In this document: one piece after another, positions 1,090-32,000 of the stretch | Numbering within the stretch: the stretch's first letter is position 1 | Layout: every line of letters starts with the position of its first letter | DNA from: Candidatus Kuenenia stuttgartensis | GTDB taxonomy: Bacteria; Planctomycetota; Brocadiia; Brocadiales; Brocadiaceae | Assembly (NCBI RefSeq): GCF_900232105.1 | Contig: NZ_LT934425.1 | Coordinates: 2,460,001 to 2,492,000 of the forward strand | Reading direction: 5' to 3' | Length of the DNA stretch: 32,000 nucleotides | Position numbers and translations under genes: made by a program | Notes under the pieces: generated by a model | What the model was told of the DNA's origin: nothing | Databases searched by the model: none | The model's input: the letters and a program-made list of their open reading frames with translations, nothing else

Positions 1090-1101
1090 TAGGAGGCTTA
1101 T

Positions 1102-1368
1102 ATGGACGCCAAAACCGTAGTTATTTCTGTTTCGATACTGGCAGCGGCCTTTGTAATGGCTATCGGTGGTTACGGGCCGGCAAAAGCGCTTGGAAATGCC
1201 CTTACCGAGGCCCTTGACGCCACAGCAAGACAGCCTGAGGCGTCCGACAAAATTATGAGGGTGCTTTTTGTCGGAATGGCGCTGATTGAATCCATTGCCA
1301 TATACGCATTTGTTATCGCTTTGATTGTCCTTTTTGCAAATCCTCTTATCGGGTATATTTTAAAATGA
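1102..1368 (+). CDS. atpE: ATPase Fo subunit c
   Basis: 88-aa helical hairpin with the polar loop ARQPEA and the helix-2 carboxylate in MALIESIAIYAFVIALIVLFANP. An AGGAGG-like RBS (taggaggc) lies upstream. Confidence 0.9.
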   Translation: MDAKTVVISVSILAAAFVMAIGGYGPAKALGNALTEALDATARQPEASDKIMRVLFVGMALIESIAIYAFVIALIVLFANPLIGYILK

Positions 1369-3602: not shown

Positions 3603-3604
3603 AT

Positions 3605-4444
3605 ATGCTTTCTTCCTTAGATATCGAAAAAAAGATACGGGCATCATATATCATTGGAGACATAGTCGGTGTTATGAAAGCATATGCCGGAGTCACAATG
3701 AGGAGAACAGAGGATCTTGTTCAGAATATAAGGGCATATGAAAAAAATATGCTTTTGGCAATGGCCGATATCATAACGCATTATCCTGGAATTTCATTGA
3801 AGGAACAAAGTAAAGGGAAAAAAATTCTCGTGGTCTTCGGTTCCTCGCAGGGGTTATGTGGTTCCTTTAATGAAAAAATGGTTGATGTCGTTTCTTCTGT
3901 AATTACCGGCAATGATATCCTGTTTGTTATAGGGAAGAGATTAAAATCGTCTTTTGAATTAAAACATGTACCTTATGAAGATTACAGCGATTCCGTAGCG
4001 AGCATTAACGGTATACGGCCAGCTTTAAAAGAGACTGTTTCGAAAATAATGAATATTTACAAAAAGGAGGAATACTATAAGCTTACCTTTGTCTTTACCT
4101 ATATTTTTGAAAAAAAGGCTGAAATTTCTGTGGAACAAATCCTCCCTCCTGATATTAATAAAGTAAACGCTTTAAGCCCAACCAGAATTCCACCGTTTAC
4201 CTACCTTAAACCAAAGATTATTTTTAATAAAATCTTAGAAGAATTTTTATTTATCAGTCTTTACCGATGTTATATGGAGTCGCTCAGAAGCGAGAACTGG
4301 TATCGGCTGAGAAGCATGGACGGCGCATCAGAAACTTTAAAAAGACAGCTCTCGAACCTTAATTCTGTTCAGATGTACACCAGACAGGAAGAAATTACGG
4401 AAGAGATGCTTGAGATACTGGGAAGCGGGATGTTCTATAAGTGA
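3605..4444 (+). CDS. atpG: ATPase F1 subunit gamma
   Basis: 279 aa. The N-terminal helix (IEKKIRASYIIGDIVGVMKAYAGVTMRR) and C-terminal helix (QEEITEEMLEILGSG) fit the gamma coiled-coil ends. It is the last gene of the operon, 2 nt after atpA. Confidence 0.8.
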   Translation: MLSSLDIEKKIRASYIIGDIVGVMKAYAGVTMRRTEDLVQNIRAYEKNMLLAMADIITHYPGISLKEQSKGKKILVVFGSSQGLCGSFNEKMVDVVSSVITGNDILFVIGKRLKSSFELKHVPYEDYSDSVASINGIRPALKETVSKIMNIYKKEEYYKLTFVFTYIFEKKAEISVEQILPPDINKVNALSPTRIPPFTYLKPKIIFNKILEEFLFISLYRCYMESLRSENWYRLRSMDGASETLKRQLSNLNSVQMYTRQEEITEEMLEILGSGMFYK

Positions 4445-8705: not shown

Positions 8706-10403
8706 TGCGTTTAGCTAAGTATTCTCATCGCAAGCTCTTGGGACTATTCCAGCAGAGGATGTCGTTTTAACTCTGGACAGTATCAAAGAAGCTTTGGGAA
8801 CGACTTCAAAAGCAACGGTTTTCAGGAAGCTAAAATCGCTCGGACATCGTGCGAGTTATTCCCATGCAGGGCAAATACCATACACTGGATACACTTGCAA
8901 GCTATAATAAATATGGCATTTGGAGTTTCAATCAAATATATTTTTCTCAACAAGGAAGTCTTGTATATACTCTCGAGGCCATCATTAATAAATCTCATGG
9001 AAGGTTGTTTTGCCTCGGAGCTTCAAACGCTGGTACATGTGCGAGTCTTTAATGCACTGACTCAATTAGTGGTATCTGGAAGAGTCTTGCGCGAGCAGAT
9101 TGCCGGAGAATATTTGTATATCTCCAAGGTGTTAGGTACGGATCAACTCGCCAGACGTAAACAGTCAATCATGTTGTGTGCTTGTAAGGAAGAAAATGTA
9201 TTAATTCCCGGCTTTGGGAGTGAGGCGGTTACGGATTGCCTGCAGACATTTCTTTCCTATACTTGATGAAAGGCAGAAACGGCTTTATCTTGGTTTAGAA
9301 TCAATGAAACTGGGATATGGCGGCGATTTAAGACTTTCACTGCTAACCGGCATAAATGTAAAAACAATTGCCAAGGGGCGTCGGGAACTTTCGAGTAAGA
9401 ACATTACACCGGGACGGATACGTAAGGTTGGTGCAGGTCGTTCTTCGATTAAAAAAAAACTGATGTGGTAAAACTTCTTGAAGAATTGATGGAGGGCGAT
9501 ACTGCAGGAGACCCAATGGGTAAAGGAAAAATATGGACGAGAAGAAGCACACGTACTCTAAAAAAAGAATGCGGTGATAGAGGTGTAAGCGTATGTGCAA
9601 CAACAGTTAGTAAGCTTCTTAAGGACATGGATTATTCTCTGAGAGTAAATCGCAAAACGATAGCAGAGACACGTCATCCGGACCGTAATAGACAGTTTGA
9701 AATTATTAATGAGACAAAAAAGTATTTTGAAGATTCTGGTCAGCCAATAATCAGTGTTGACAGTAAGAAAAAGGAATTGATAGGTAATTTCAGAAATGAG
9801 GGCAAGGCGTGGACAAAAATAGTAAATGAAGTTTTGGCCCATGATTTTCGTTCTCAGGCAATTGGTGTTGGATGTCCGTTTGGTATCTATGAATTGCTGA
9901 CTAATTTAGGGACAGTTATTGTTGGTACGTCCTATGACACACCGGAATTTGCAGTCGAGTCAATTAAGATTTGGCTGGATGAATTTGGTTGGAAGAGGTA
10001 TCCATGCGCAAAAGAACTCCTTATTCTTTGTGACGCAGGAGGGAGCAACGGATTTCGTCCCCGGTTGTGGAAATATGCGCTTTATCAAAATATTTGTAAA
10101 GTTTACGGACTCTCCATCAGGATTTGCCACTATCCCTCAGGAGCATCAAAATGGAATCCGGTAGAACATCGTCTGTTTAGTTTTATCAGTAAAAATTGGG
10201 AGGGGAATCCTTTGAGGTCTTATGATGTTATGCTAAGTTTAATTGCTGGCACTACAACAACAGCGGGTCTTCTCGTACAAACCATTCTTAACGAGAAAGA
10301 ATACCAAAAAGGAATCAAAATCACTGATGACCAAATGAAAGAAATAAACATAAACAAACACAGTGTCTTGCCAGATTGGAATTATACAATTTCACTTAAC
10401 TAA
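8706..10403 (+). mobile_element. ISAzo13-type (Rhodopirellula DDE transposase family) insertion sequence remnant with multiply frameshifted ORFs
   Basis: 9465..10403 encodes the DDE domain (ISVDSKKKELIGNF, ILCDAGGSNG, YPSGASKWNPVEHRLFS). The N-terminal part ILDERQKRLYLGLESMKLGYGG lies in another frame (9214..9471). A further upstream winged-helix-like part (TVFRKLKSLGHRASYSHAGKYHTLD) is split over two more frames. Element ends were not identified. Confidence 0.75.
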
Positions 10404-19686: not shown

Positions 19687-19937
19687 CATGAAAAACTCAT
19701 ATCGTAACAATTTAGCTTGCCGCAGAGAACGCTGGGACTTCGTCGTGAGCTCAATCGAACAATCGCAGAGGTTTTTAGGAGATAAAAACAGAAAATTATG
19801 CAGGTGCCCACGGGTATTTGTTTTCTCCGTGTTATCCGCGCCCTTTACGGTGAACTATTACCTCATATCTTATCCATGAAATATGGAAAAGAACTAAATT
19901 CACTGGTCAACTCATTAGAAAAAAAGACTCGACCGCA

Positions 19938-20007
19938 GACCTCCGACTTCTGCCCTCCGACCCCTGACTTCCGACTTCTGACTTCTAGTCTCTGCCCTCT
20001 GACTTCC
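19938..20007 (+). repeat. heptamer array, 10 degenerate units
   Basis: gacctcc gacttct gccctcc gacccct gacttcc gacttct gacttct agtctct gccctct gacttcc. Confidence 0.85.
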
Positions 20008-20095
20008 GGGTGTATCAGAAAGCTTATGCACTTGCTATGGAACTGTTTGAACTTTCGAAAGAATTCCCCTGTGAGGAGCGTTTTGCTCTTACAGA
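20007..20095 (+). pseudogene. four-helix-bundle gene fragment (codons about 10-39 only)
   Basis: CGGGTGTATCAGAAAGCTTATGCACTTGCTATGGAACTGTTTGAACTTTCGAAAGAATTCC.CTGTGAGGAGCGTTTTGCTCTTACAGA equals 18209-18297. Its 5' side abuts the heptamer array and its 3' side is cut by the small element at 20096. Confidence 0.85.
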
Positions 20096-20157
20096 GTAAC
20101 TGTTCAGCGTAAATATTATCGTTTAATACCGACTTGCTCCCAAACTCCGGTTTCTCG
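20096..20157. repeat. small insertion-type repeat, short form (partner 13002-13107)
   Basis: Starts GTAACTGTTCAGCGTA and ends AAACTCCGGTTTCTCG. It truncates the four-helix-bundle fragment. Confidence 0.6.
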
Positions 20158-20309
20158 TACATCGTTTCGTTAAAATGTGTACGTAAAAAATGTCATTGCG
20201 AGGAGTGGAGCGACGAAGCAATCTCTTGTTCCCAAAAGACTTAAGATTGCTTCGCTGTCGCTCGCAATGACGGTATCAATGTAGATATTCTAATGAAACG
20301 CTATACTAG
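20157..20309. repeat. 153-nt hairpin repeat, copy 2
   Basis: Partner of 4513-4665. The stem at 20193-20270 (TCATTGCGAG...CGACGAAGCAATCT / AGATTGCTTCG...CTCGCAATGA) pairs perfectly at both ends. Confidence 0.85.
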
Positions 20310-20453
20310 ATTTAAAAATCCAGTAGATATTAAAACTTTTGTTGCTAATGGTAAAAGGAAGGCCGAAAGCTGAACTGAAAAAGATTCCTTTTAGTTCTGG
20401 GGACACCATACATAAATTATTGACTTCATTATTAAAATAGTTAAGAGGTGTTC

Positions 20454-21290
20454 ATGTCCAGAATTGCGCATATGGTAGTTCCGGAAACGCCACATCATAT
20501 TACTCAACGAGGAAGTCGACATTTGCAGGCATTCTTCTGCGACTAGGATTGTGAGGCTACATATACTTGATGTCTCAGTGGTGTAGGCGCTGGGACATTG
20601 AAATATGTGCATATTGCTTGCTACCAAACCATGTACACCTGATTGGGGTCCGTCCTCTGGAAATGCGCTTAGTCAGGCGATTGGATAAGTGCATCGACGC
20701 TACACAAGTCGCGTAAACTTCCGGGAAGGCTGGAGAGGGCGCCTGTCACAAGGACGTTTTGCCTCTTCCTTAATAGACAAAACCCATTTGTACTTAGCCG
20801 CACGCTATGTTGAACTGAATCCGGTGAGAGCAAAATTAGTTAAGAAACTACAGGAGTACCGATGGAGTAGTGCACCGGCACACATTGCTGGGAGGTGCAT
20901 TCCCGATTTTTTGTAATTATCTGCACAATGTAACACAAGCATACTGCTTGTGATATTTAATACACAAGCTGCCTGCCTATACGGGTTGGCACAGGCATTT
21001 TGCCTGTGCGAAATACAGGCAGGAATGACTGTACCACCCTTGCTGGGAGAGATGACCGTCTTGTGCATGTAGAGCCGTTGCTTGAGATGTTTGGCAAGTG
21101 GGACGATTTTCTTACCAGCGGTCTATCGGAAGAAGAAGTCGAAGAGGTTAGATGTCATGAACGAACCGGAAGACTTCCTGGCGCTAACAGTTTTTTAGTC
21201 CAGCTTGAAAATGCCCATGGAAGAATACTCCATAAGCAAAAACCTGGCCCAAAGAGGTCTCAAAAGGAAAAGAAGCCTCTCCTGAATTAA
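20454..21290 (+). pseudogene. RAYT / IS200-like Y1 transposase, dead copy C
   Basis: Shares the TAG (FFCD*) and the adjacent 1-nt deletion with copy A. A 146-bp insertion sits at 20894-21039. The tail ...GANSFLVQLENAHGRILHKQKPGPKRSQKEKKPLLN* is intact and has no MITE. Inverted repeats at 20399-20411 and 21291-21302. Confidence 0.85.
20894..21039. mobile_element. 146-bp insertion with 9-bp target duplication TTGCTGGGA
   Basis: Direct repeats at 20885-20893 and 21040-21048; copy B has the uninterrupted site. The left end is GGTGCATTCCCGATTTTTTGT (MITE-type TIR). The right end is different, a hairpin-containing ...GCCTGTGCGAAATACAGGCAGGAATGACTGTACCACCC. Confidence 0.75.
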
Positions 21291-21330
21291 GTATGATGTC
21301 CCTGTAATTCCCAATGCTATTGCTGAACTT

Positions 21331-21552
21331 TTGAATAAAGAGCCTGAATTAAGGGAGAAATTGATAGTAGGCGCCTATATTGACGGAGAGATAAATCCTG
21401 GAAAAGCGGCAGAACTATTGGGGATTCACCCGGTTAAGCTGAGAGGGCAACTTTTATCAAAAGGCATACCTGTCAGGATAGGTGTAGAAACGATAGAAGA
21501 AATAGTAGCCGAAGGGATAGCTGCAAGAGGTACCAGGGAAAGTGCTGAATGA
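21331..21552 (+). CDS. UPF0175-like antitoxin, probably N-terminally clipped
   Basis: LIVGAYIDGEINPGKAAELLGIHPVKLRGQLLSKGIPV fits the UPF0175 HTH region. The frame is open upstream to the RAYT right end (IPNAIAELL...) with no ATG, and the track start is TTG. Confidence 0.45.
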   Translation: MNKEPELREKLIVGAYIDGEINPGKAAELLGIHPVKLRGQLLSKGIPVRIGVETIEEIVAEGIAARGTRESAE

Positions 21553-21557
21553 TACTT

Positions 21558-21748
21558 ATGGACAACAATGTCCTGTCAAACTTTGCCCTGATAGGAGAGA
21601 TAAACCTTCTACAAGACTACAGTTTGCTGAGAATGTGGATATTCAGACAGAGGAATTTTGTGAAGATATGGCTGCCAAAAAAATAGAATATGTCATAATG
21701 ATTGTAATCAACGATAGATACAGACATCGGCATATTCATGAGACATGA
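21558..21748 (+). pseudogene. PIN-like toxin 5' remnant
   Basis: MDNNVLSNFALIGEINLLQDYS resembles the first strand and helix of PIN toxins. The frame then breaks and the rest of the domain is absent. Confidence 0.3.
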
Positions 21749-21953
21749 GGGAGGAAAGATAGTATTTTTCAGGGTACCATATAAGACAAGAATTAATGAT
21801 AAATGGTGTCCTGTTGTCAGATATGATACTGCTCGTGGATTTGTACATGGGGATTTGATGAGTGTCAATGGAGATGTAAAGAAAACACCTTTATTTAATC
21901 AAGACAATAACAGTGCATTAACTTTTGCTGAAAATGATCTAAAATCTAATTGA
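21738..21953 (+). CDS. small protein of unrecognised family, possibly prematurely terminated
   Basis: 71-aa ORF (VVRYDTARGFVHGD). After TGA 21951-21953 the same frame stays open for 11 more codons to TGA 21987-21989, which overlaps the ATG of the next gene. Confidence 0.35.
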   Translation: MRHEGGKIVFFRVPYKTRINDKWCPVVRYDTARGFVHGDLMSVNGDVKKTPLFNQDNNSALTFAENDLKSN

Positions 21954-21988
21954 GAGTATTACAAAAAGAGATTTTTGGAGGAGGGGTG

Positions 21989-22267
21989 ATGTGCAAGGAA
22001 AAAGAAATGATAGAGCGCAATATTGAGCTAAGCGCTGAGTTTAGCAGGTATTTGTTTGAACATCCGGAAGTTGAAACAAAGATACCACTGGATGCAAAGG
22101 TTGTGCTTTTGCCTGAATTTGACAAAGAATTAAAGAGATTTAATCTTCAATTGGGAAAAAACATCGAAGCGGATGGTGGGCGGGTGGTATATATACTGAT
22201 CAAAAATATTCGCCCTAAGGTTTTGTCAAGAATAGAAAAAATAGAATTTGAACCTGTTGCGAATTAA
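21989..22267 (+). CDS. small protein, DUF5647-like (from memory)
   Basis: ATG at 21989 follows GGAGGAGGGG. The product MCKEKEMIERNIELSAEFSRYLFEHPEVETKIPLDAKVVLLPEFDKELKRFNLQLGK resembles that family. The track start at 21950 is less likely. Confidence 0.4.
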   Translation: MCKEKEMIERNIELSAEFSRYLFEHPEVETKIPLDAKVVLLPEFDKELKRFNLQLGKNIEADGGRVVYILIKNIRPKVLSRIEKIEFEPVAN

Positions 22268-22543
22268 GTGTTTTTCTCCATAGAGAAAATCTTAGAGGGG
22301 CTTCTCTGTGATAGATAAAAAGAGAATTGTAGAGAAAAGCGGCATGCTTGGCTTTGAAAAACACGAGGTGGAAAATGAAACTGCTGCTTATAAATCCATA
22401 TTTTGAATGGACGTGTTTATACGCCATCCATTGTCTTCTTGTCCTGGCTATCACATTAAAGATGCTGTTTTGAAATTAATTCAAGTAGTTTTGGAACGGG
22501 AAAAGAAGAAAAAGACGTAGGACTAAAAAAGGGGAGATATTCT

Positions 22544-22705
22544 ATGAGATGGGATGAATTTATAAGGGGAATTAAGAGGTTCTGTGGTTTTTTGCAAGAC
22601 CAGGTTGAGAAGGGGGAAAATAATCTTTTGAAATTTTGTGCCCCTTGCGTCTTTGCGTGGAACAATTTTCTCTTCCGGCTCGTTCGGGTTAGGCCATCTA
22701 AATGA
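22544..22705 (+). CDS. 53-codon ORF translationally coupled to the ABC exporter (hypothetical)
   Basis: ATG 22544 lies 8 nt after GGGGAG. Its stop TGA 22703-22705 overlaps the ABC start ATG 22702 (ATGA). The product is MRWDEFIRGIKRFCGFLQDQVEKGENNLLKFCAPCVFAWNNFLFRLVRVRPSK. There is no homology evidence. Confidence 0.2.
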   Translation: MRWDEFIRGIKRFCGFLQDQVEKGENNLLKFCAPCVFAWNNFLFRLVRVRPSK

Positions 22706-24558
22706 AAACTATTTTTTCTAAATTTTTATATTTATTTAACCGCAGAGAAAAGCTACAGATATTTGCCCTGTTTATTTTAATACTTGTAAGCGCCTTATTT
22801 GAGACATTTGGGGTGGGGCTAATGTACCCCTTTATTTCGATACTTAAAAATCCGGAAGTTATCCACTCTTATAGAATCTTGCATTGGTTTTATGTTTTCA
22901 TGGGTATGGGGTCCTTGAAAGAATTCTTAATTTGGGCTGTAATAGGATTGATTGCATTTTATTTACTCAAAAATGTCTTCCTGGTTTTATTGGCTTATGC
23001 ACAATCAAGATTCATTTATAATAAACAGATATTGTTTGCCCACCGTTTATTTGTTTTCTATCTTAATCAGCCCTATACCTTTCATGTGCAAAGGAATACC
23101 GCAGAATTATTGCATAAAATCAACGTTACGGTTTCTACGCTTTTTAGTGGTTTTCTGCTTTATGCGATAATGTTCGTGATTGAAATAATAACTACTCTGT
23201 CTATCCTTTGCCTACTCATTATATTAAAACCACTGCCGTCTATAATTGCAGTAAGCGTGTTGGGCATTATTACAATTTTTTTTTATAAGTTAATTCGGAA
23301 AAAGATCGGGAAGCTCGGTGAGATGAGGCATCATTTCGGCGAACAGATGGTCCGCTGGGTTACTCAGGGTTTGGGCGGGATAAAGGAAACCAAGGTGCTG
23401 GGGAGGGAAGGGTTCTTTGCTAATGAATACAATAAAAACAGCAAGGGATATGTTAATGCAGAAAGATTTCTCTATGTGATTAATCAACTCCCTCGCCCAT
23501 TTCTGGAGACGATATGCATTTTGAGTATGTTCCTGATAATGCTATTAATGATGGCTCAGAATAAAGATTTGGGATCGATCATACCCACATTGTCATTATT
23601 TGCAATGGCTGCTTTTCGAATCATACCATCTATGAACCGCATCTTTGCAGCCGCCACACTGATGCGCTACAACAGTTCTTCGGTTGAAATAGTTTATAAT
23701 GAACTCACTTCCTTCGATAAACATCCTGCTTCATTTGAAAGGGCGCCTGCTGATGTTATTGCAAAAACAGTGGACAAACCAAAAACTCCTGCTGTTTCCT
23801 TTCCCGCAGGAGAGTCCTTCTTTGATAATGCAATAGAGCTTAAGAACGTTTCCTATCAATATCCCAATACTGAGAAGGCTGTTCTTAACGGTATTTCGCT
23901 CGTAATTCCAAAGCACTATTCTATCGGATTTGTTGGTCCATCGGGGGCGGGTAAGACTACTCTTGTGGATGTGATTATCGGCCTGCTTACGCCAACACAT
24001 GGAGAGGTATTGGTCGATGGTAAAATTATGAAAGATAATTTATCAGATTGGCAACGCCGAATAGGTTACATTCCACAGAGCATATATCTCTCCGATGACA
24101 CCATTCGGCGGAACATAGCTTTTGGTTTGCCTGATGAACAAATCGATGAGGATCAAATCTGGTCGGTTCTTGAATCTGCGCAACTTAAGGAATTCGTTAA
24201 TAATCTACCTGATAAACTTGGTACTTTTGTAGGGGAGCGGGGCATTCGTCTTTCAGGTGGCCAACGGCAACGCATAGGTATTGCCAGGGCATTGTATCGT
24301 AATCCTGAGGTGCTGGTGATGGATGAGGGCACTGCTTCATTGGATAACGAAACGGAATGGGAAATTATGCAGACAGTAAAAAACCTACGTGGGGAAAAAA
24401 CAACAATAATTATTGCGCACCGTTTAAGTACTATAAAAAATTGCAATCTGCTTTATTTCATAAAAGATGGTACTATTACTGACTATGGGGTGTATGACGA
24501 ATTGTTCGATAAAAGCCAGGAGTTTAAATCGATGGTTATGGCAACGGAGTACAAATAG
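22702..24558 (+). CDS. ABC exporter, fused permease/ATPase (MsbA-type fold)
   Basis: 618 aa. A six-TM exporter domain is followed by an NBD with Walker A GPSGAGKTT, signature LSGGQRQR, Walker B VLVMDEGTASLD and H-loop IIIAHRL. Confidence 0.85.
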   Translation: MKTIFSKFLYLFNRREKLQIFALFILILVSALFETFGVGLMYPFISILKNPEVIHSYRILHWFYVFMGMGSLKEFLIWAVIGLIAFYLLKNVFLVLLAYAQSRFIYNKQILFAHRLFVFYLNQPYTFHVQRNTAELLHKINVTVSTLFSGFLLYAIMFVIEIITTLSILCLLIILKPLPSIIAVSVLGIITIFFYKLIRKKIGKLGEMRHHFGEQMVRWVTQGLGGIKETKVLGREGFFANEYNKNSKGYVNAERFLYVINQLPRPFLETICILSMFLIMLLMMAQNKDLGSIIPTLSLFAMAAFRIIPSMNRIFAAATLMRYNSSSVEIVYNELTSFDKHPASFERAPADVIAKTVDKPKTPAVSFPAGESFFDNAIELKNVSYQYPNTEKAVLNGISLVIPKHYSIGFVGPSGAGKTTLVDVIIGLLTPTHGEVLVDGKIMKDNLSDWQRRIGYIPQSIYLSDDTIRRNIAFGLPDEQIDEDQIWSVLESAQLKEFVNNLPDKLGTFVGERGIRLSGGQRQRIGIARALYRNPEVLVMDEGTASLDNETEWEIMQTVKNLRGEKTTIIIAHRLSTIKNCNLLYFIKDGTITDYGVYDELFDKSQEFKSMVMATEYK

Positions 24559-24563
24559 AATTC

Positions 24564-25274
24564 ATGGAGGCTATCATCTTGGCAGGTGGTTATGGCACAA
24601 GGCTTCAAAGTGTTATAAAAGATATTCCAAAACCTATGGCGGATATAAACGGCCGCCCATTTCTATCCTATCTAATGGATTATTTATTATGCCAGAATAT
24701 TCGAAAAATCCTGCTTTCTGTTGGATATAAACATGAAATTATTAAAAACTATTTTGGTTTAAGGTATAAAAATTTGGATATCGAATATGTAATAGAAGAT
24801 AAGCCTCTCGGAACTGGCGGCGCTATAAAGGAAGCGTTAAAATGGGTGGAAGGAGATGATGTTGTAGTTTTAAATGGTGATACATTTTTCTACCTTGAAC
24901 TTAAAAAATTAATTGAATTTCATCTTGCACAAGACGCAATTTTAACCATTGCAGTAAAACTTATGCATAATTTTGATAGGTACGGAACGGTGGTATTAAA
25001 AGAAGGCAAAATAATTAATTTCGAAGAAAAAACGTTTAAGGCTGCTGGCTATATAAATGGCGGAGTGTATGTTATTAAAAAAAAGATTTTTGAGTCTTTT
25101 GATATGAAAAAAGATAAATTCTCGTTTGAGATGGATTTTTTGCATAAAAATATAGAGGCAATCAAGCCAGCCGCTTTTTCTAGTGACAGTTATTTTATAG
25201 ACATTGGAATACCCGAAGATTACAAAAAAGCACAAAAAGAAATAGGGCTTATTTTTAAGGAAATAGTCGGATGA
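24564..25274 (+). CDS. hddC: sugar-1-phosphate nucleotidyltransferase, HddC-like (D-glycero-D-manno-heptose-1-P guanylyltransferase family)
   Basis: 236 aa with ILAGGYGTRL...KPM, LGTGGAI and NGDTFF motifs. ATGA overlap with the GHMP kinase gene. Confidence 0.7.
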   Translation: MEAIILAGGYGTRLQSVIKDIPKPMADINGRPFLSYLMDYLLCQNIRKILLSVGYKHEIIKNYFGLRYKNLDIEYVIEDKPLGTGGAIKEALKWVEGDDVVVLNGDTFFYLELKKLIEFHLAQDAILTIAVKLMHNFDRYGTVVLKEGKIINFEEKTFKAAGYINGGVYVIKKKIFESFDMKKDKFSFEMDFLHKNIEAIKPAAFSSDSYFIDIGIPEDYKKAQKEIGLIFKEIVG

Positions 25275-26263
25275 TTATTTCACGAACACCGCACCGGATT
25301 TCATTTTTTGGAGGCGGAACAGATTATCCAGCATGGTATTTGGAAAATGGGGGAAAAGTTTTAGGTGTGGCAATTGATAAATATTGCTATATAACCTGCC
25401 GAAAGCTTCCCCCCTTTTTTAGTCATAAGCACAGAATTGTATATTCTAAAGTGGAAACGGTAAATCAACTGAAGGAAATTCAGCATCCTTCTGTAAGAGA
25501 AACCTTAAAATACCTAAATATCAAAAATGGGTTAGAAATTCATCACGATGGAGATATTCCTGCTCGCTCTGGTATGGGTTCAAGCTCTGCCTTTACCGTA
25601 GGACTTCTTAATACTCTATACGCGCTCGAAGGAAGAGTCGTAACGAAAGAGAGCCTTTATAAAGAAGCAATACACATTGAACAGAATTTAATAAAAGAAA
25701 ATGTGGGATCCCAGGATCAGGCTTGGGCTGCTTGTGGAGGACTGAACATTATTGAATTTCTACAAAATGGAGAGATTTTAGTTAAGCCAATAATAATGCG
25801 AGAAAGTCTTTTGAGAAGTTTTGAAAACAAGTTCATGCTTTTTTTTACATGGTTATCAAGGAATTCTTCAGAAGTAGCAAAAGAGCAGATCGAGAATACG
25901 CAGAAAAACAGGAACGAGTTAACAGAAATGACTGGGATAGTCAATGCGGCGTATAAAATACTTGTTTCAGGGAAAAGTGATTTTGCTGAGTTTGGAAAAC
26001 TTTTAAATGAATCCTGGAGATTAAAAAAACGGCTTTCTACAAAAATCACCAATGGTGAAATAGATGCTATTTATGAAAAAGCGCTTAAAAATGGGGCTGT
26101 TGGTGGTAAATTGCTTGGGGCGGGTAGTGGAGGTTTTATCCTTTTTTATGTAGAACCTGAAAATCAAGCTAGGGTAAAAGAGGCATTAAAAGGATATTTG
26201 CACGTTCCCTTTAAGTTTGATTTTTCGGGATCTGAAATAATGGTGTATCAACCTGGTTTTTAA
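25271..26263 (+). CDS. hddA: GHMP-family sugar kinase, HddA-like (D-glycero-D-manno-heptose-7-P kinase family)
   Basis: 330 aa with RTPHRISFFGGGTDYP, PARSGMGSSSAF, GSQDQAWAACGG and GAGSGGF motifs. Confidence 0.7.
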   Translation: MIISRTPHRISFFGGGTDYPAWYLENGGKVLGVAIDKYCYITCRKLPPFFSHKHRIVYSKVETVNQLKEIQHPSVRETLKYLNIKNGLEIHHDGDIPARSGMGSSSAFTVGLLNTLYALEGRVVTKESLYKEAIHIEQNLIKENVGSQDQAWAACGGLNIIEFLQNGEILVKPIIMRESLLRSFENKFMLFFTWLSRNSSEVAKEQIENTQKNRNELTEMTGIVNAAYKILVSGKSDFAEFGKLLNESWRLKKRLSTKITNGEIDAIYEKALKNGAVGGKLLGAGSGGFILFYVEPENQARVKEALKGYLHVPFKFDFSGSEIMVYQPGF

Positions 26264-26285
26264 GTTAAGAATAAGGAAAAATATA

Positions 26286-27446
26286 ATGAGATACGAACTT
26301 ACCAGTTCAACATGGAGTGAAGAGGAAAAGCAAACCATACGAGAGATTATTGAGTCTGGAATGTATACCATGGGAAGGCATGTAAAGGAGTTTGAAGAGA
26401 AATTTGCAAAATATTTTGGTATGAAATACGCCGTTATGGTAAATTCCGGCTCATCAGCGAATCTTATTGCGGTGGCTTCATTTTTTTATAAAAAAGAAAA
26501 CCCCCTCAAAAGAGGTGATGAAGTAATCGTACCATGTATTTCATGGGCAACTACTTTTCATCCACTTCAACAATACGGCTTAAAACTGAAATTCGTTGAT
26601 ATTGATTTGAACACATTAAATTATGATATAGATGAGCTTAAAAAAGCCTTAACTAAAGATACCAAAATGATAGTTGCGGTAAGTATTTTAGGGAATCCCT
26701 GTCCGTTTGATGAAATAACAAAATTATGTGAAGAAAATAATATCATTCTTTTTGAGGATAATTGCGAATCAATGGGCGCTAAGTTTCATGGTAAGTATAC
26801 AGGGACATTTGGACTCGTGAATACCTTCAGCACGTTCTTTTCACATCATATTTCAACTATGGAAGGGGGGCTTGTTTTAACCAATGATAAAGAAATTTAC
26901 AATCTCCTGAAATCAATCAGAAACCACGGCTGGATAAGGGGGCAGGATGCAGATAGTCCGATTTTCGAGAGGAGAGGGGACGATTTTTTTGAGGCATACA
27001 GATTCATTCTTCCTGGTTATAATGTAAGACCAGGAGAAATCCATGGCGCTGCAGGCAGAAAACAGTTAGATAAATTAGAAAGTTTTGTGAAGACCAGAAG
27101 AGAGAATGCAGGACATTTTGTGCAACTTTTTGGCAATGATGAAAGATTTATAATACAAAAAGAAATTGGAGAAAGTTCGTGGTTCTGTTTTACAATGATT
27201 ATTAATCCAAAACTAAATATTGATAGAAAAAAAGTATTGCAGAAACTAACGGCAGCAAATATCGAACATCGTATCATTACCGGTGGAAACTTTTTAAGGC
27301 ATGATGTAATTAAATATTATGATTACGAGGTCGTAAGTAGAAAAAATGCCGATATAGCCCATGACTACGGATTTTTTGTTGGGAATCATCCTTACGATAT
27401 AAGAGATAAAATACATTATTTGTATAAAACATTGGAACAGATTTAA
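26286..27446 (+). CDS. PLP-dependent sugar 3-dehydratase, ColD-like (GDP-4-keto-6-deoxymannose 3-dehydratase family; DegT/DnrJ/EryC1 fold)
   Basis: 386 aa, colinear with E. coli ColD as I remember it (SSTW...MYTMG..V..FE..FAKYFG.KYAVMV.SGS.ANL, LQQYGLK.KFVDID.NTLN, EDNCESMGA, LPGYNVRP, GESSWF.F). The active-site region is FSTFFSHHISTMEGG, with His where aminotransferases of this fold carry the Schiff-base Lys. Confidence 0.8.
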   Translation: MRYELTSSTWSEEEKQTIREIIESGMYTMGRHVKEFEEKFAKYFGMKYAVMVNSGSSANLIAVASFFYKKENPLKRGDEVIVPCISWATTFHPLQQYGLKLKFVDIDLNTLNYDIDELKKALTKDTKMIVAVSILGNPCPFDEITKLCEENNIILFEDNCESMGAKFHGKYTGTFGLVNTFSTFFSHHISTMEGGLVLTNDKEIYNLLKSIRNHGWIRGQDADSPIFERRGDDFFEAYRFILPGYNVRPGEIHGAAGRKQLDKLESFVKTRRENAGHFVQLFGNDERFIIQKEIGESSWFCFTMIINPKLNIDRKKVLQKLTAANIEHRIITGGNFLRHDVIKYYDYEVVSRKNADIAHDYGFFVGNHPYDIRDKIHYLYKTLEQI

Positions 27447-27460
27447 AGGAGAAATAGTAA

Positions 27461-28399
27461 ATGAGTTACAATATATTAGTTACCGGCGGAGCTGGGTATT
27501 TGGGTTCAGTACTGGTTCCCGAATTGTTAAAATTAGGACACAAAGTAACTGTTTTAGACAATTTTATGTTCGGTCAAAGCCCTTTGCTGGACTGTTGCTC
27601 AAGTGAAAATTTTAATGTGGTAAGAGGAGATGCAAGAGATGAGGATATTCTAAAACTTCTTCTGGAAAAAGCTGATTATATTATACCTTTAGCGGCATTA
27701 GTAGGCGCCCCACTTTGCAGCAGAGACAAAATAGGAACGATAACCACTATTCGAGATGCAGCGGCTTCCCTGGTTAAGCTTGCCTCAAAAGAACAGAGAT
27801 TCATCATACCTACAACGAACAGCGGTTATGGCATTGGACAAAAAGGGGTGTATTGTACTGAAGAAACTCCTTTGAATCCCATTACACTATATGGAAAGGC
27901 TAAGGTAGAAGCGGAAAAGATTGTACTCGATAAAGGAAATTCAATAAGTTTCAGGTTAGCAACGGTATTTGGCACGTCTCCCAGGATGCGACTTGACTTA
28001 TTGGTAAATGATTTTACCTACAGGGCAGTCAAAGATAGATTTGTAGTGATTTTTGAAGGTCATTTTAAACGAAACTACATCCATATTCGGGACGTAGCAA
28101 GGGCATTTATACATGCCGTAAATAATTTTGATACGATGAAAAATGAGCCTTATAACGTAGGCTTGTCGGATGCAAATCTATCAAAACTTGAACTCTGTGC
28201 AAAGATAAAAGAGTATGTTCCGGATTTTGTATATTTAGAGTCGCCGATAGGTGAAGACCCTGATAAAAGAGATTATATTGTATCAAATGAAAAAATTGAA
28301 AAAACAGGATTTAATCCTGTCTATTCGCTTGAAATGGGAATAAAAGAGCTTATTAAAGGATACAAGATTATTACGAATAGTAAGTACTCAAACGTATGA
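27461..28399 (+). CDS. NAD(P)-dependent sugar epimerase/reductase (extended SDR)
   Basis: 312 aa with the Rossmann motif VTGGAGYLGS and the catalytic YGKAK (YxxxK). Confidence 0.75.
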   Translation: MSYNILVTGGAGYLGSVLVPELLKLGHKVTVLDNFMFGQSPLLDCCSSENFNVVRGDARDEDILKLLLEKADYIIPLAALVGAPLCSRDKIGTITTIRDAAASLVKLASKEQRFIIPTTNSGYGIGQKGVYCTEETPLNPITLYGKAKVEAEKIVLDKGNSISFRLATVFGTSPRMRLDLLVNDFTYRAVKDRFVVIFEGHFKRNYIHIRDVARAFIHAVNNFDTMKNEPYNVGLSDANLSKLELCAKIKEYVPDFVYLESPIGEDPDKRDYIVSNEKIEKTGFNPVYSLEMGIKELIKGYKIITNSKYSNV

Positions 28400-28457
28400 A
28401 AATTAGAAAATGAGACACAGTCAATGCGAATTTTGGAAAAGAAAACCTATTTAAGAA

Positions 28458-28820
28458 ATGGGGGTTAGAAAGATGACCATTTTAAAGGCATTAACAGGTA
28501 GTATTGAGAATTTGCCGTCTTTGCGCCTGCATATATTGCTAACAAAGGAGGATGATGTTATAGTTGCGCGGTGTTTGGATTTTTCGGTTTCAAGCCATGG
28601 GAATAGTGAAACTGAGGCGCTTAACTCTTTAAGCGATAGTATAAAGGACTATATTGGCCATGCTATAGAACATGATGCATTAGATGAAATTATCGATCCA
28701 GACGAAGATGAGTTTTGGGAAGCATTTAGAAAATCAGAATTACAGGATGAGTTGCTAAATATCAAGGAGAACATTGATATTTTAAAAACTAAGAAAATAA
28801 ACGAAGTAACCTATGCCTAA
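28458..28820 (+). CDS. HicB-like antitoxin
   Basis: LHILLTKEDDVIVARCLDFSVSSHGNSETEALNSLSDSIKDYI fits the HicB N-terminal fold pattern. It overlaps the next ORF by 8 nt. An alternative start is the ATG at 28473. Confidence 0.5.
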   Translation: MGVRKMTILKALTGSIENLPSLRLHILLTKEDDVIVARCLDFSVSSHGNSETEALNSLSDSIKDYIGHAIEHDALDEIIDPDEDEFWEAFRKSELQDELLNIKENIDILKTKKINEVTYA

Positions 28821-29034
28821 AGCCCTTGAACTAAGAAAGGTTATTGAACTACTAAAAAATTATGGAATTGAATTTGACTCAAAAAGTGGCGGCAGGCATT
28901 CTGGGAAATTTATAAAAATGGGGAAATCTTTTCCCGTTAAGGCGCATGGCATGAAAACAACAATATTGCCGTATGCGTTAAAAGGACTGATAAAGAAATT
29001 TGAACTTCCTTCTGATATCTTTGATAGAAAATAA
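28813..29034 (+). CDS. HicA-like toxin
   Basis: 73 aa: LRKVIELLKNYGIEFDSKSGGRHSGKFIKMGKSFPVKAHG..ILPYALKGLIKKFELP parallels HicA (LIKLLEK.GF...Q.GSH....HP......VP.HG...L..G.L..IL+QAGL). Confidence 0.5.
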   Translation: MPKALELRKVIELLKNYGIEFDSKSGGRHSGKFIKMGKSFPVKAHGMKTTILPYALKGLIKKFELPSDIFDRK

Positions 29035-29036
29035 TT

Positions 29037-29978
29037 ATGAATAAAGATTCAAAAATCTATTTGGCTGGACATACTGGCCTATTAGGCTCTGCGTTACTAA
29101 AAAGATTGAAATCAGAAGGTTATTCAAATATCGTTATGCGAACTCATACTGAGCTTGATTTAACAAGGCAAGAATCTGTTGATGAATTTTTTAAGAATGA
29201 ACAACCGGAGTATGTATTTTTGTGCGCCGGACTGACAGGAGGTATTATTGCAAATAAGACATATCCTGCAACCTTCATGCATACGAATATAGCAATCCAG
29301 GACAATGTTTTTGAAGCAGTTCAAAAATACGGGGTTCAGCACTTAGTGTTTTATGGTTCGTCATGTGTGTATCCAAAAAATTGTCCGCAGCCCATAAAAG
29401 AAGAATATTTATTGACTGGTGAAATAGAAGAAACCAGTGAGGCTTATGCAGCAGCGAAAATTGCAGGCATAATTGCTTGTAAGTCGTATAACAATCAATA
29501 TAAAACAAACCGATTCATTGTCCTGATTCCCAATTCAATGTATGGTCCAAACGATAATTTTGACCTGGAGAATTCCCATGTGCTTTCTGCCTTAATAAGA
29601 AGATTTTATGAGGCAAAGACAGAAGGAAGAAACAGAATAACTCTTTGGGGCAGTGGGAATCCGCGAAGGGAGTTTATGTTTAGTGATGATGTTGCTGATG
29701 CTTCCGTTTTTGCCATGAAAAATGTAGAAAGACTTCAAAATACACATTACAATATAGGAACTGGAATTGATTATTCAATAAAAGAGCTTGCTGAAATTAT
29801 AGCAAAAGTTGTAGGGTTTAAGGGTAAGATTGAATGGGATACAACAAGACCAGATGGTATCCAGAGAAAACTCTTGGATAGTTCAAGGTTTTATAGTCTG
29901 GAATGGAAGCCATTTACTGCGATTAAAGATGGACTGAAAATAACTTATGAGTGGTTTAAAAATATCCAAAAACAGTAA
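29037..29978 (+). CDS. fcl: GDP-4-keto-6-deoxy-sugar 3,5-epimerase/4-reductase, Fcl/ColC-like
   Basis: 313 aa: IYLAGHTGLLGSA, ELDL, GGIIANKTYPATF, GSSCVYPK, YAAAKIAG, NSHVLSALIRRF, WGSGNPRREFMFSDD, RPDG..RKLLD. It is colinear with E. coli Fcl as I remember it. Confidence 0.8.
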   Translation: MNKDSKIYLAGHTGLLGSALLKRLKSEGYSNIVMRTHTELDLTRQESVDEFFKNEQPEYVFLCAGLTGGIIANKTYPATFMHTNIAIQDNVFEAVQKYGVQHLVFYGSSCVYPKNCPQPIKEEYLLTGEIEETSEAYAAAKIAGIIACKSYNNQYKTNRFIVLIPNSMYGPNDNFDLENSHVLSALIRRFYEAKTEGRNRITLWGSGNPRREFMFSDDVADASVFAMKNVERLQNTHYNIGTGIDYSIKELAEIIAKVVGFKGKIEWDTTRPDGIQRKLLDSSRFYSLEWKPFTAIKDGLKITYEWFKNIQKQ

Positions 29979-30819
29979 GGATAATATACCTAAAGAAGAA
30001 TCAAAAAATTTGATCGAATTTTTAAAAAATAAAGCCTTATGGGTGCGTAAAGAGACCTTGAATATTCACAGGATAGCACAGGAAACAAGACTGGCTTCCT
30101 CTTTATCTGCTGTGGAGATATTTGTGGCTTTGTTTTATGGTAGGATTCTAAATTTTGATCCCAAAAATACCCTATGGGGAAATAGGGACAGATTTATTAT
30201 CAGTAAGGGTCATGGTTCAATTTCATTGTATCCGGTACTTGCAGATTTGGGATATTTTGATATGCAGGAATTGAAACGGGTGTGCAAAGAGGGTTCTTTT
30301 CTCGGAGCAATTCCGGATACTATAATCCCCGGATACGAGACAATAAACGGCTCTTTAGGACACGGTCTTGGGGTTGCGTGCGGTATTTCCCTTGCTTTGA
30401 AAAGAAAAAACAAAAGTGAAGAAGTTTTTGTACTTCTTGGTGATGGTGAATTATACGAGGGTTCGGTATGGGAAGCAGTCATGTTTGCAGGGGCGCATAA
30501 ATTGGATAATCTGGTATTAATAATAGATAACAATAAAATTTGTATGCTTGATTATTGTAAAAATATACTGGATTTAGAACCTCTTAGCGAGAAGTTCAAG
30601 ATGTTTAGATGGATGGTTAGAGCAGTTGATGGGCACGACATTAATCAATTATATAAGTCCTTAAAAGAATTAAAAGAGAGTAAAGATAACAAACCAAAAT
30701 TATTGATAGCTAGTACTGTAAAAGGAAAGGGTATACCAAGCCTTGAAAATGACCCCTTGAGTCATATAAAAAACATAAAACCTGACGAAATTGACAAAGC
30801 AATAGAGGAATTAAAATGA
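29947..30819 (+). CDS. transketolase, N-terminal (ThDP-binding) subunit
   Basis: 290 aa with GHGSISLYP, GSLGHGLGVACG and LLGDGELYEGSVWEA (GDG..E ThDP motif). Confidence 0.85.
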   Translation: MSGLKISKNSKDNIPKEESKNLIEFLKNKALWVRKETLNIHRIAQETRLASSLSAVEIFVALFYGRILNFDPKNTLWGNRDRFIISKGHGSISLYPVLADLGYFDMQELKRVCKEGSFLGAIPDTIIPGYETINGSLGHGLGVACGISLALKRKNKSEEVFVLLGDGELYEGSVWEAVMFAGAHKLDNLVLIIDNNKICMLDYCKNILDLEPLSEKFKMFRWMVRAVDGHDINQLYKSLKELKESKDNKPKLLIASTVKGKGIPSLENDPLSHIKNIKPDEIDKAIEELK

Positions 30820-31778
30820 TTACAGAGAGAAAGAGCATGAGGGATGTCTTTATAGAACAGATTTATCATCGTATGTCTGATAACAGCTCAATCTTTTTTC
30901 TCTCTGCTGATTTTGGTTCACCGAAGCTTGATAAACTGAGAGAGGATTTTAGTGACAGATTTATAAATGTTGGTATTGCAGAGCAGAACCTAATAAATGT
31001 CTCGACAGGTTTAGCGTTGGAAGGGTTTACTGTGTATGCCTATGCTATTGCACCATTTTTGATAATGAGGGCTTATGAACAGATAAGAAATAACCTCTCT
31101 CTGCTTTCCCATACTCATAAGGTAAATGTAAACTTGGTGGGAGTTGGCGCAGGCTTGAGCTACGATGTATCAGGACCAACGCACCACAGCCTCGAAGATA
31201 TCAGTATAATAAGAACCTTACCCAACCTAAGCATTTTTTCTCCCAGCGATTGTTTACTCGCAGAGAAGTTTGTGGATTATTCAATAGAACACAAAAGCCC
31301 GAAATATATCAGGTTTGACGGTAAGCCATTGCCGGTTATTTATGGAAACACGAAGAGTTTGGATATACAGATCGGATTTTTTGAACTGACAAAGGGCGAC
31401 AATGTATGTTTGGTTTCAACGGGCTATATGACGCATACAGCCCTGAAGGTAGTTGAGAAATTGACCAAGGAAAATGTTTTTATCGGGCTTGTTGATGTTT
31501 TTCTGATAAAACCGCTTTATGAGGATTTACTTTTTGAGGCACTGAGTAAATATAAATATGTGATAACTCTTGAAGAGGCATTTATAAATAAAGGTGGCCT
31601 GGACAGTCTGGTATCAGGCATTTTAAATAATAAAGAAGCAAGCATTAAATTAAAAAAAATGGGATTTAGCGATAAATATCTTTTTGAGATGGGCGGAAGG
31701 GATTGCATGCACAAGTTAAATGGACTGGATGAAGACAGTATTGTCAAAGATATAAAAGACTTGCTGAGAAAGATATAA
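30816..31778 (+). CDS. transketolase, C-terminal (pyrimidine-binding) subunit
   Basis: 320 aa with FINVGIAEQN and GPTHHSLEDISIIRTLPN. ATGA overlap with the N-terminal subunit gene. Confidence 0.85.
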   Translation: MITERKSMRDVFIEQIYHRMSDNSSIFFLSADFGSPKLDKLREDFSDRFINVGIAEQNLINVSTGLALEGFTVYAYAIAPFLIMRAYEQIRNNLSLLSHTHKVNVNLVGVGAGLSYDVSGPTHHSLEDISIIRTLPNLSIFSPSDCLLAEKFVDYSIEHKSPKYIRFDGKPLPVIYGNTKSLDIQIGFFELTKGDNVCLVSTGYMTHTALKVVEKLTKENVFIGLVDVFLIKPLYEDLLFEALSKYKYVITLEEAFINKGGLDSLVSGILNNKEASIKLKKMGFSDKYLFEMGGRDCMHKLNGLDEDSIVKDIKDLLRKI

Positions 31779-31786
31779 GGCAGAGA

Positions 31787-32000
31787 ATGGATATAGTCTT
31801 AATTAATCCTGGTGACAGGAAGCAGGTTTATCAAAACCTTGGGGAAGACTACGCTGCAATTGAACCTCCGTTCTGGATTGCTGTAATAGGTGCTTATCTT
31901 AGAAATAATGGGTTTGATGTGGCAGTTATTGATGCAAACGCTGAAAATATTTCTCCACAAGAAACTGCAGAAAAAGCAAATAGATTACAACCGTTATTGT
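31787..32000 (+). CDS. B12-binding-domain radical SAM enzyme, N-terminus only (runs off window end)
   Basis: MDIVLINPGD...EPPFWIAVIGAYLRNNGFDVAVIDANAENISPQETAEK is the usual start of class B radical SAM proteins (cobalamin-binding Rossmann domain). The CxxxCxxC region is not yet reached. Confidence 0.45.
   Translation, partial: MDIVLINPGDRKQVYQNLGEDYAAIEPPFWIAVIGAYLRNNGFDVAVIDANAENISPQETAEKANRLQPLL

Follow-up and report, generated by a model that had tools for sequence, protein, structure and literature searches.

The window analysed here is a stretch of 32,000 nucleotides of Candidatus Kuenenia stuttgartensis (contig NZ_LT934425.1, positions 2,460,001 to 2,492,000 of the forward strand; G000:C1:2460001-2492000). 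From 22702 to the window end it shows a tightly packed block of + strand genes, delimited by open reading frames (ORFs) and by Pfam and NCBIfam matches. The block contains an exporter gene, genes for the activation and modification of a nucleotide sugar, the two halves of a split transketolase (TK), named TK-N and TK-C, and the 5' end of a gene encoding a B12-type radical S-adenosylmethionine (rSAM) enzyme, which was read onward in the genome past the window end. The subject of this report is the split transketolase, which is not the housekeeping enzyme and has about an even chance of being a re-tooled carbon-carbon ligase. The block comprises:

22702-24558, + strand: ATP-binding cassette (ABC) exporter, PglK/MsbA-like, 618 aa (Pfam ABC_membrane and ABC_tran; NCBIfam PglK 335 bits, below the curated cut-off)
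24564-25274, + strand: HddC-like heptose-1-phosphate guanylyltransferase, 236 aa (NCBIfam HddC 270.6 bits, against a cut-off of 300)
25271-26263, + strand: HddA-like GHMP sugar kinase, 330 aa (GHMP_kinases_N/C)
26286-27446, + strand: ColD-type pyridoxal/pyridoxamine phosphate (PLP/PMP) sugar 3-dehydratase, 386 aa (His replaces the Schiff-base Lys)
27461-28399, + strand: Cj1427-like NAD-dependent GDP-heptose C4-dehydrogenase, an extended short-chain dehydrogenase/reductase (SDR), 312 aa (PDB 6vo6/6vo8)
28458-29034, + strand: two small overlapping ORFs, 120 and 73 aa (weak DUF7387 match only)
29037-29978, + strand: Fcl/ColC-like epimerase-reductase, 313 aa (NCBIfam GDP-L-fucose synthase 401.8 bits, against a cut-off of 500)
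29947-30819, + strand: TK-N, thiamine diphosphate (ThDP)-binding (PP) chain of the predicted split transketolase-fold carboligase, 290 aa (Pfam Transketolase_N 3.9e-38)
30816-31778, + strand: TK-C, its pyrimidine-binding and C-terminal chain, 320 aa (Pfam Transket_pyr 8.3e-23, Transketolase_C 2.8e-16)
31787-32000, running past the window, + strand: 5' end of the class B radical SAM gene (B12-binding domain)

The ABC exporter is the first gene of the block and lies outside the conserved cassette, whose eight genes are all intact and of normal length in Kuenenia when compared with homologous loci. The two small ORFs at 28458-29034 are missing in those loci, where the SDR and Fcl-like genes adjoin, and look like an insertion into the operon, not like cassette members. 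The HddC-like transferase matches PDB entries 5xhw/6jq8 (Yersinia HddC, a protein of the 6-deoxy-D-mannoheptose pathway) with an E value of 9e-53, and the HddA-like kinase matches the heptose kinases 3k85, 4usk (WcbL) and 4n3o with E values of 1e-34 to 1e-38. The ColD-type enzyme, in which the motif FFSHHISTMEGG is found, matches ColD/WbdK 2gms (E 2e-130), and the Fcl-like enzyme matches the E. coli GDP-fucose synthase 1bsv (E 1e-89). The SDR matches 6vo6/6vo8, which we take to be C. jejuni Cj1427, over its full length with an E value of 5e-117, the second-best match being at 5e-21. The structure closest to TK-N is the split transketolase of C. hydrogenoformans (6yak, E 2.7e-49), and TK-C matches the other chain of the same enzyme (6yaj, E 1.1e-36).

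A first-pass annotation, made from the sequence alone, had placed the two transketolase halves in a single ATGA-coupled operon at the end of the sugar genes, followed by the N-terminus of a class B radical SAM protein. The sequence bears this out: the ATGA overlap at 30816-30819 couples TK-N to TK-C, the Pfam domains match, an 8-nt spacer separates TK-C from the rSAM ATG, and the TK and rSAM genes lie at the 3' end of the sugar-nucleotide genes. Read onward, the rSAM gene (L001:2788-4248, its end at window coordinate 33247) encodes a B12-binding/Radical_SAM protein of 486 aa. The same annotation had given TK-N a 32-nt overlap with the Fcl-like gene, which holds if the ATG at 29947 is the start and is lost if translation begins at the in-frame TTG at 30010; both the start and the overlap are uncertain, because the TK-N homologues are shorter (275-277 aa) and align from about residue 15-25. 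Scanned for promoters and terminators, neither 22000-30000 nor the sequence downstream of the rSAM gene had more sites than shuffled sequence.

Homologues of TK-N with 70-83% identity are found in metagenome-assembled genomes (MAGs) named as Nitrospirota, Spirochaetota, Actinomycetota, Pseudomonadota, Methanosarcinales and Methanoperedens, and three long homologous contigs show the same neighbour genes. A scan of species-representative genomes, which used peptide patterns from the Kuenenia protein and is biased to close relatives, gave 80 loci with a break in identity to Kuenenia TK-N between the cassette family (at least 53%) and other split transketolases (at most 47%). Loci L077 and L078 (44-46% identity) were put in the family on their neighbour genes, and their tree position and residue signature agree. 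Partner genes were sought by tblastn and all-against-all ORF clustering in the 62 family loci; since many contigs are incomplete, the counts are lower bounds. Eight families recur: TKC (50 loci), TKN (49), GHMP kinase (48), rSAM (45), DegT (44), SDR (40), the guanylyltransferase or NTP family (39) and Fcl (35). The next commonest families occur in at most 12 of the 62 loci. The GHMP kinase orthologues are 52-77% identical, and the cassette shows more than 10 different gene orders. TKN and TKC adjoin in every locus where ORF clustering recovered both, and the rSAM gene is usually next to them. No cassette-type partner (at least 45% identity) was found beside the other split transketolases, which show only weak DegT, NTP, SDR and ABC-type matches of 25-32%. 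In a quick maximum-likelihood tree every TK-N sequence of the cassette falls in a single clade (SH-aLRT 100) whose stem is long (0.85), so the split transketolases of these glycan clusters are separate, a check that the first-pass annotation had suggested.

In this tree Kuenenia TK-N adjoins Nitrospirota MAGs, not other Planctomycetota. An orthologue of at least 65% identity is present in only three of 58 other genomes of the same order, the three other genomes of the genus contain no TK orthologue, and among 399 Planctomycetota genomes sampled a match with E of at most 1e-85 is found in the genome of the window only. The few carriers in the order and phylum, together with the tree position, point to a rare, patchy and horizontally spread cassette; such spread is usual for genes of glycan diversity. 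A literature search for the cassette, which many uncultured microbes share, found no published characterisation.

Two further genes accompany the cassette in part of the family. A DAO-type FAD-dependent oxidoreductase of about 375 aa is encoded in 10 of the 62 loci (L017, L019, L021, L023-L025, L030, L031, L034 and L037) and is absent from the Kuenenia locus. A gene of the AP_endonuc_2 type (xylose-isomerase-like TIM barrel) directly follows the rSAM gene in L011:13396-14118 and L015:13285-14169 and is not family-wide.

The active site was compared by aligning 59 TK-N and 56 TK-C sequences of the cassette family to the genome's own Tkt, with residues numbered as in E. coli. His66, the Asp of the GDG motif, Asn185, His261, Arg358, Glu411 and His473 are invariant in the family. 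Kuenenia TK-N keeps His89, Asp166, Asn196 and His273, and TK-C keeps Arg9, Glu56 and His123, so that the ThDP/Mg motif (GDG...N; Asp166 and Asn196) and the cofactor-activating Glu411 (Glu56 of TK-C) of a canonical transketolase are present. The substrate residues are different. The His26 site shows Arg in all 59 cassette copies, against His in 19 of the 19 other split transketolases from the same search, and the His100 site shows Ile in 57 copies and Met in two, against His in 17 of 19; the alignment at both sites is ungapped and the flanks are conserved. Gly occupies the His461 site in 56 of 56 copies and Ser the stereo-determining Asp469 site in 52 of 56, two sites at which the other split transketolases are mixed. 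The Arg520 site holds Gly, Ser or Ala in all 56 copies, against mostly Arg in the other split transketolases, and Ser385 is variable. In Kuenenia these sites are Arg48 and Ile122 of TK-N (His26 and His100) and Gly111, Ser119 and Gly169 of TK-C (His461, Asp469 and Arg520). Within the sugar-phosphate site (Arg358, Ser385, His461 and Arg520) Arg358 alone is kept. With the cofactor residues invariant and the substrate residues replaced, the cofactor chemistry is kept and the substrate sites have been rebuilt. By its substrate residues the enzyme falls outside the canonical transketolases (EC 2.2.1.1).

The residue at the His100 site bears on the donor. DXPS (1-deoxyxylulose-5-phosphate synthase), a pyruvate user, consistently shows Phe at this site, and H100F or H100L raises the use of pyruvate by transketolase (PMC7661550); the H102L transketolase variant shows better binding of an alkyl donor (PMC11997939). 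The genome's own Dxs also has Phe there. Since the cassette enzyme has Ile at this site, a hydrophobic residue as in DXPS and the transketolase mutants, its natural donor is more likely to be a non-hydroxylated 2-oxoacid, with pyruvate favoured over hydroxypyruvate or a ketose.

In its overall build the enzyme is a split two-chain transketolase, with a PP chain and a Pyr/C chain from adjacent, coupled genes. The architecture of YerE, the ThDP enzyme of yersiniose synthesis (a single chain with TPP_enzyme_N/M/C), is absent, and a weak local TPP_enzyme_C match is found around the GDG motif only.

Split transketolases outside the family were also observed. Most genomes of the anammox order contain a different one, 38-46% identical to that of the cassette (for example G031:C89:60001-60765 and G047:C6:30672-31433). 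In the wider sample, the other split transketolases keep His26 and His100, have often lost His461 and Asp469, and in some cases lie beside DegT genes (L085, L087 and L095); they may be a second specialised split-transketolase family.

The partner enzymes indicate the sugar on which the cassette acts. The first-pass annotation had called for a survey of ColD-like genes, and a DegT-family gene is found in 44 of the 62 loci, nearly all of the His (dehydratase) type. Among 45 aligned DegT-family ORFs of the cassette, which fall in three subfamilies mutually 27-38% identical, 43 show His at the position of the Schiff-base Lys; of the remaining two, one is a second copy of the Lys type and one is a misaligned ORF. 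This replacement is the mark of ColD/E1 3-dehydratases. Cj1427 and the HS:5 C3-dehydratase of C. jejuni turn GDP-heptose into GDP-D-glycero-3-deoxy-4-keto-heptose in vitro (PMC10680097), and the C. jejuni-type set for GDP-heptose modification (HddA, HddC, Cj1427-type, ColD-type and Fcl-like enzymes, GmhA and GmhB) is present in Kuenenia by homology. GmhA and GmhB are encoded side by side elsewhere in the genome (C1:885963-886984; 189.8 and 148.2 bits, just below the curated cut-offs). Linkage of the two genes to the cassette is seen in a few loci, and L053 has a gene for a GT9 heptosyltransferase next to the cassette. Because of the SDR, DegT, HddC-like and HddA-like matches and the presence of GmhA and GmhB, the scaffold is most likely GDP-heptose, with formation of a 3-deoxy-4-keto intermediate. 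The Fcl-like enzyme keeps Ser107, Cys109, Tyr136, Lys140 and His179 of the E. coli GDP-fucose synthase; its gene is absent from about 40% of the full-length loci, and there the 4-ketone must be consumed by some activity that is not an Fcl-like reductase.

Synthesis of colitose from Gmd, ColD and the Fcl-like enzyme was also considered, as a Gmd gene is present in the Kuenenia genome. It is a possible side activity and leaves the set of HddA/HddC, Cj1427-like, TK and rSAM genes unexplained.

The rSAM protein matches Pfam B12-binding (7.4e-19, 68 bits) and Radical_SAM (2.1e-19, 71 bits), and its cluster motif C221-x3-C225-x2-C228 is invariant among the cassette copies. The structure model (pLDDT 92.9) shows a class B fold which, with the B12-binding Rossmann domain and the CxxxCxxC core, places the protein in the class B radical SAM enzymes. 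In Foldseek searches with this model the methylase TsrM is first by E value, and AprD4, a sugar 1,2-diol dehydratase, has the best TM-score (0.73/0.78); MgmA, OxsB, CysS and TokK are further matches by TM-score. Given the similar scores of AprD4 and the methylases, methylation, dehydration and rearrangement are each possible for this enzyme. The motif A-H-N-W-H-C at residues 197-202, just upstream of CxxxCxxC, varies little or not at all among 29 cassette rSAM proteins.

The pathway proposed for the cassette would begin with a heptose 7-phosphate made by GmhA and GmhB, encoded elsewhere. By homology with the C. jejuni enzymes, the HddA-like kinase and the HddC-like guanylyltransferase would activate this sugar, the Cj1427-like dehydrogenase would oxidise C4, and the ColD-type enzyme would remove the 3-hydroxyl to give GDP-3-deoxy-4-keto-heptose. 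On mechanistic grounds, the transketolase-like enzyme would decarboxylate a non-hydroxylated 2-oxoacid, most likely pyruvate, and join the two-carbon acyl-anion unit to a carbonyl of GDP-3-deoxy-4-keto-heptose, the C4 ketone being the leading candidate by comparison with YerE. The B12-type rSAM enzyme would carry out a further radical step, either a C-methylation or a dehydration/rearrangement, the Fcl-like enzyme would epimerise and reduce, and the outcome would be a GDP-sugar of nine or ten carbons, so far undescribed and destined for a surface glycan. That TK-N/TK-C is a specialised two-chain ThDP carboligase of transketolase fold, acting as one step of an eight-gene GDP-heptose-tailoring cassette, is a proposal in which our confidence is evenly divided, and the chances are likewise balanced that the enzyme adds a pyruvate-type two-carbon unit to a GDP-keto-heptose intermediate.

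Under this general statement, the acceptor carbon is somewhat more likely to lie at C4 than in the side chain. In favour of C4 branching are the near-universal presence of a 3-dehydratase, a logic shared with the YerE-type pathways, where a ThDP enzyme is paired with such a dehydratase (PMC12247030), and the missing Fcl-like gene in about 40% of the full-length loci. The first-pass annotation had envisaged transfer of a two-carbon unit onto the ColD product, followed by methylation or rearrangement by the rSAM enzyme. This reading is partly supported: a sugar-tailoring carboligase working with an rSAM enzyme fits the separate clade, the order-independent gene set and the His-type 3-dehydratase. 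The 6-deoxyhexose (4-keto-3,6-dideoxy) scaffold gives way to a likely heptose, from the Cj1427-like C4-dehydrogenase match; Ile at the His100 site disfavours the hydroxypyruvate or ketose donor; and C4 is a candidate site of attack.

Several observations weigh against the proposed pathway. The epimerisation pair Cys109/His179 is present in 36 of 36 cassette Fcl-like copies, and Tyr136 in 32 of 36. Fcl chemistry needs a ring 4-ketone and a C5 proton and therefore competes with C4 branching; at least in the Fcl-containing cassettes, the ring 4-ketone may be kept until the Fcl step. The Nitrospirota locus L011/L017 shows a cassette without any 3-dehydratase. The fold of the rSAM enzyme is about equally close to AprD4 and to the methylases, and according to PMC12247030 acceptance of ketones or nucleotide sugars is yet to be demonstrated for any member of the transketolase family. 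Lastly, a C2-branched 3-deoxyheptose would be expected to give a residue of 220.09 Da, or of 234.11 Da with an added methyl, and the published Kuenenia S-layer glycan shows no residue of the expected mass (PMC5088730).

The O-glycan in question, of the K. stuttgartiensis S-layer, contains five N-acetylhexosamine (HexNAc) residues and one residue of 174.09 Da reported as unidentified (PMC5088730). This mass corresponds to C8H14O4, a residue formula shared by yersiniose and a methyl-dideoxyheptose. The residue is not claimed as the cassette product, as its mass fits only a hexose-based branch or a transketolase adding no carbon, and the S-layer data neither support nor exclude a link to the cassette.

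Three other explanations of the split transketolase can be set against this proposal. An ordinary transketolase that merely supplies sedoheptulose-7-phosphate to the heptose branch, which was the simpler reading of the first-pass annotation, would agree with the Pfam and NCBIfam matches, which are to transketolase, and with the characterised split enzyme of C. hydrogenoformans, which is an active, normal transketolase (PMC7661550). The genome, however, carries two full-length tkt genes (679 and 680 aa), as well as dxs and the pyruvate dehydrogenase (PDH) E1-beta gene, so the split pair is not its only transketolase; five canonical substrate residues, including the His26 and His100 that other split transketolases keep, are replaced across the cassette copies; the cassette as a rule lacks GmhA, the consumer of sedoheptulose-7-phosphate; and the gene pair is absent in the other genomes of the genus. 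A supply role is thus very improbable. It is also improbable, though less extremely so, that the enzyme acts before activation on a sugar phosphate, for example in a DXPS-like condensation to an unusual ketose or heptose phosphate that the HddA-like and HddC-like enzymes then activate. The phosphate-site Arg358 is invariant, as such a substrate would favour, and L011/L017 shows a full second heptose supply set upstream (GHMP kinase, NTP-transferase-SIS fusion, GmhB and transaldolase), so that the cassette pair there might use another sugar. Against this, three of the four phosphate-site residues are lost (His461 and Arg520) or not conserved (Ser385), a 1-deoxy-ketose is not isomerisable to an aldose for anomeric phosphorylation, and the supply genes linked to the cassette are the ordinary GmhA and GmhB.

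The third explanation keeps the GDP-heptose and moves the new bond to the side chain: the rSAM enzyme would act as an AprD4-like diol dehydratase on C6-C7, giving a side-chain aldehyde or ketone to which the transketolase would add a pyruvate-derived two-carbon unit, as DXPS does, and the product would be a linear nine-carbon deoxy-ulose with its ring 4-ketone still available to the Fcl-like epimerase-reductase. The TK/DXPS family natively uses aldehydes as acceptors, the rSAM gene in most cases immediately adjoins the TK genes, and the use of a C4-dehydrogenase instead of a 4,6-dehydratase leaves the C6 and C7 hydroxyls in place. The conserved C5-epimerisation residues of the Fcl-like enzyme agree with this scheme, and AprD4 is the best match of the rSAM enzyme both by TM-score and by sequence among PDB entries. 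The rSAM enzyme is, however, only 18-19% identical to AprD4, whose scores are about level with those of the methylases TsrM, MgmA, CysS and TokK. The Omnitrophota locus L053 has a TK cassette but lacks any rSAM gene in a range of 10 kb, and the sole rSAM of L051 is 23% identical; this speaks against the rSAM enzyme being required to make the transketolase substrate. The near-constant 3-dehydratase is left unexplained. Chain extension is unlikely, if clearly less so than action on a sugar phosphate, and carboligation at the C4 ketone of GDP-3-deoxy-4-keto-heptose is the reading preferred here.

A DDE transposase of the Rhodopirellula ISAZ013 type (9465-10403 of the window, Pfam 6e-108) lies between ATP synthase genes (424-4444) and the glycan block, and the region 19800-22700, directly upstream of the ABC exporter, contains only short fragmentary + strand ORFs, maybe gene remnants. 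Downstream of the cassette there is a mosaic of toxin-antitoxin and insertion-element remnants, followed by a NeuB/PseC/PseF-like block. The mosaic (L001:4249-11500; window end +1250 to +8500) shows a MazF/PemK-like toxin ORF (L001:5337-5675) and then several unassignable ORFs, and an ORF of 518 aa without any family match lies at L001:7801-9357. The second sugar block (L001:12022-19506) contains genes encoding a NeuB-like synthase, GFO/IDH/MocA oxidoreductases, a PseC/LegC-like aminotransferase (464 aa), a PseF-like cytidylyltransferase, an AP_endonuc_2-type epimerase and an SDR, a gene content that points to synthesis of a nonulosonic acid at this locus.

Few known enzyme types make carbon-branched or higher-carbon sugars, which are rare. 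With somewhat less than even confidence, TK-N/TK-C would be the first transketolase-fold enzyme with a nucleotide-sugar carbonyl as acceptor and pyruvate as natural donor, building together with a B12-type rSAM enzyme a C-branched or chain-extended nine- or ten-carbon GDP-sugar from heptose. If this is true, the product belongs to a sugar class not yet seen in any glycan, spread by horizontal transfer through loci for surface glycans in some archaea and in many phyla of bacteria; some of the variety of surface glycans in uncultured phyla would be accounted for, and a natural pyruvate-using transketolase would be available for biocatalysis. The family shows a clear residue signature, with Arg, Ile and Gly at the His26, His100 and His461 sites respectively, and a genetic context fixed across many phyla. 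A test substrate can be planned, as published C. jejuni enzymes make GDP-3-deoxy-4-keto-heptose in vitro, and Kuenenia is among the few carriers of the cassette for which there is both an enrichment culture and published glycan mass spectrometry.

Among known systems, DXPS and the H100 variants of transketolase share with the cassette enzyme the replacement of His100 by a hydrophobic residue, which fits a donor methyl and not a hydroxymethyl group. DXPS is a single chain and binds glyceraldehyde-3-phosphate. It keeps the GH motif equivalent to His26, whereas the cassette enzyme has Arg at this site and has lost most of the phosphate site.

The C. jejuni capsular GDP-heptose pathways (HddA, HddC, Cj1427, the HS:5 C3-dehydratase and MlghC/DdahC) contain close homologues of five of the eight cassette genes. 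Unlike the cassette, the C. jejuni loci have no transketolase or B12-rSAM, to go by the review (PMC10680097), in which neither word appears. The cassette Fcl-like enzyme keeps Cys109, where MlghC, a reductase without epimerase activity (PMC7949155), has Thr in the alignment.

The pathway of CDP-yersiniose A (YerE/YerF; also ErwE and MMAR_2332) resembles the cassette in the combination of a ThDP enzyme with a PMP/PLP 3-dehydratase that makes a 3-deoxy-4-keto nucleotide sugar, in the likely pyruvate-type donor and in a reductase gene nearby (PMC12247030). YerE, however, belongs to the decarboxylase superfamily and is acetolactate-synthase-like, whereas the cassette enzyme has a two-chain transketolase fold. 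Its predicted scaffold is a GDP-heptose oxidised by a Cj1427-type enzyme, not a CDP-6-deoxyhexose, and a B12-type rSAM enzyme is an extra partner. The cassette enzyme may therefore work like YerE or DXPS while standing outside the YerE superfamily.

Transketolases have only been proposed for the branching of keto sugars in the miharamycin and amipurimycin pathways and for a further 13 Streptomyces sequences, with none characterised in vitro and no structure of a ketone-accepting transketolase (PMC12247030). These split enzymes are two-chain, like that of the cassette, with a proposed addition of two carbons to a keto sugar. They are set apart by their description, as they lie in actinomycete antibiotic clusters and hydroxyacetyl transfer is proposed for them, whereas the cassette transketolase lies in surface-glycan loci of many phyla and its Ile at the His100 site argues for a non-hydroxylated donor.

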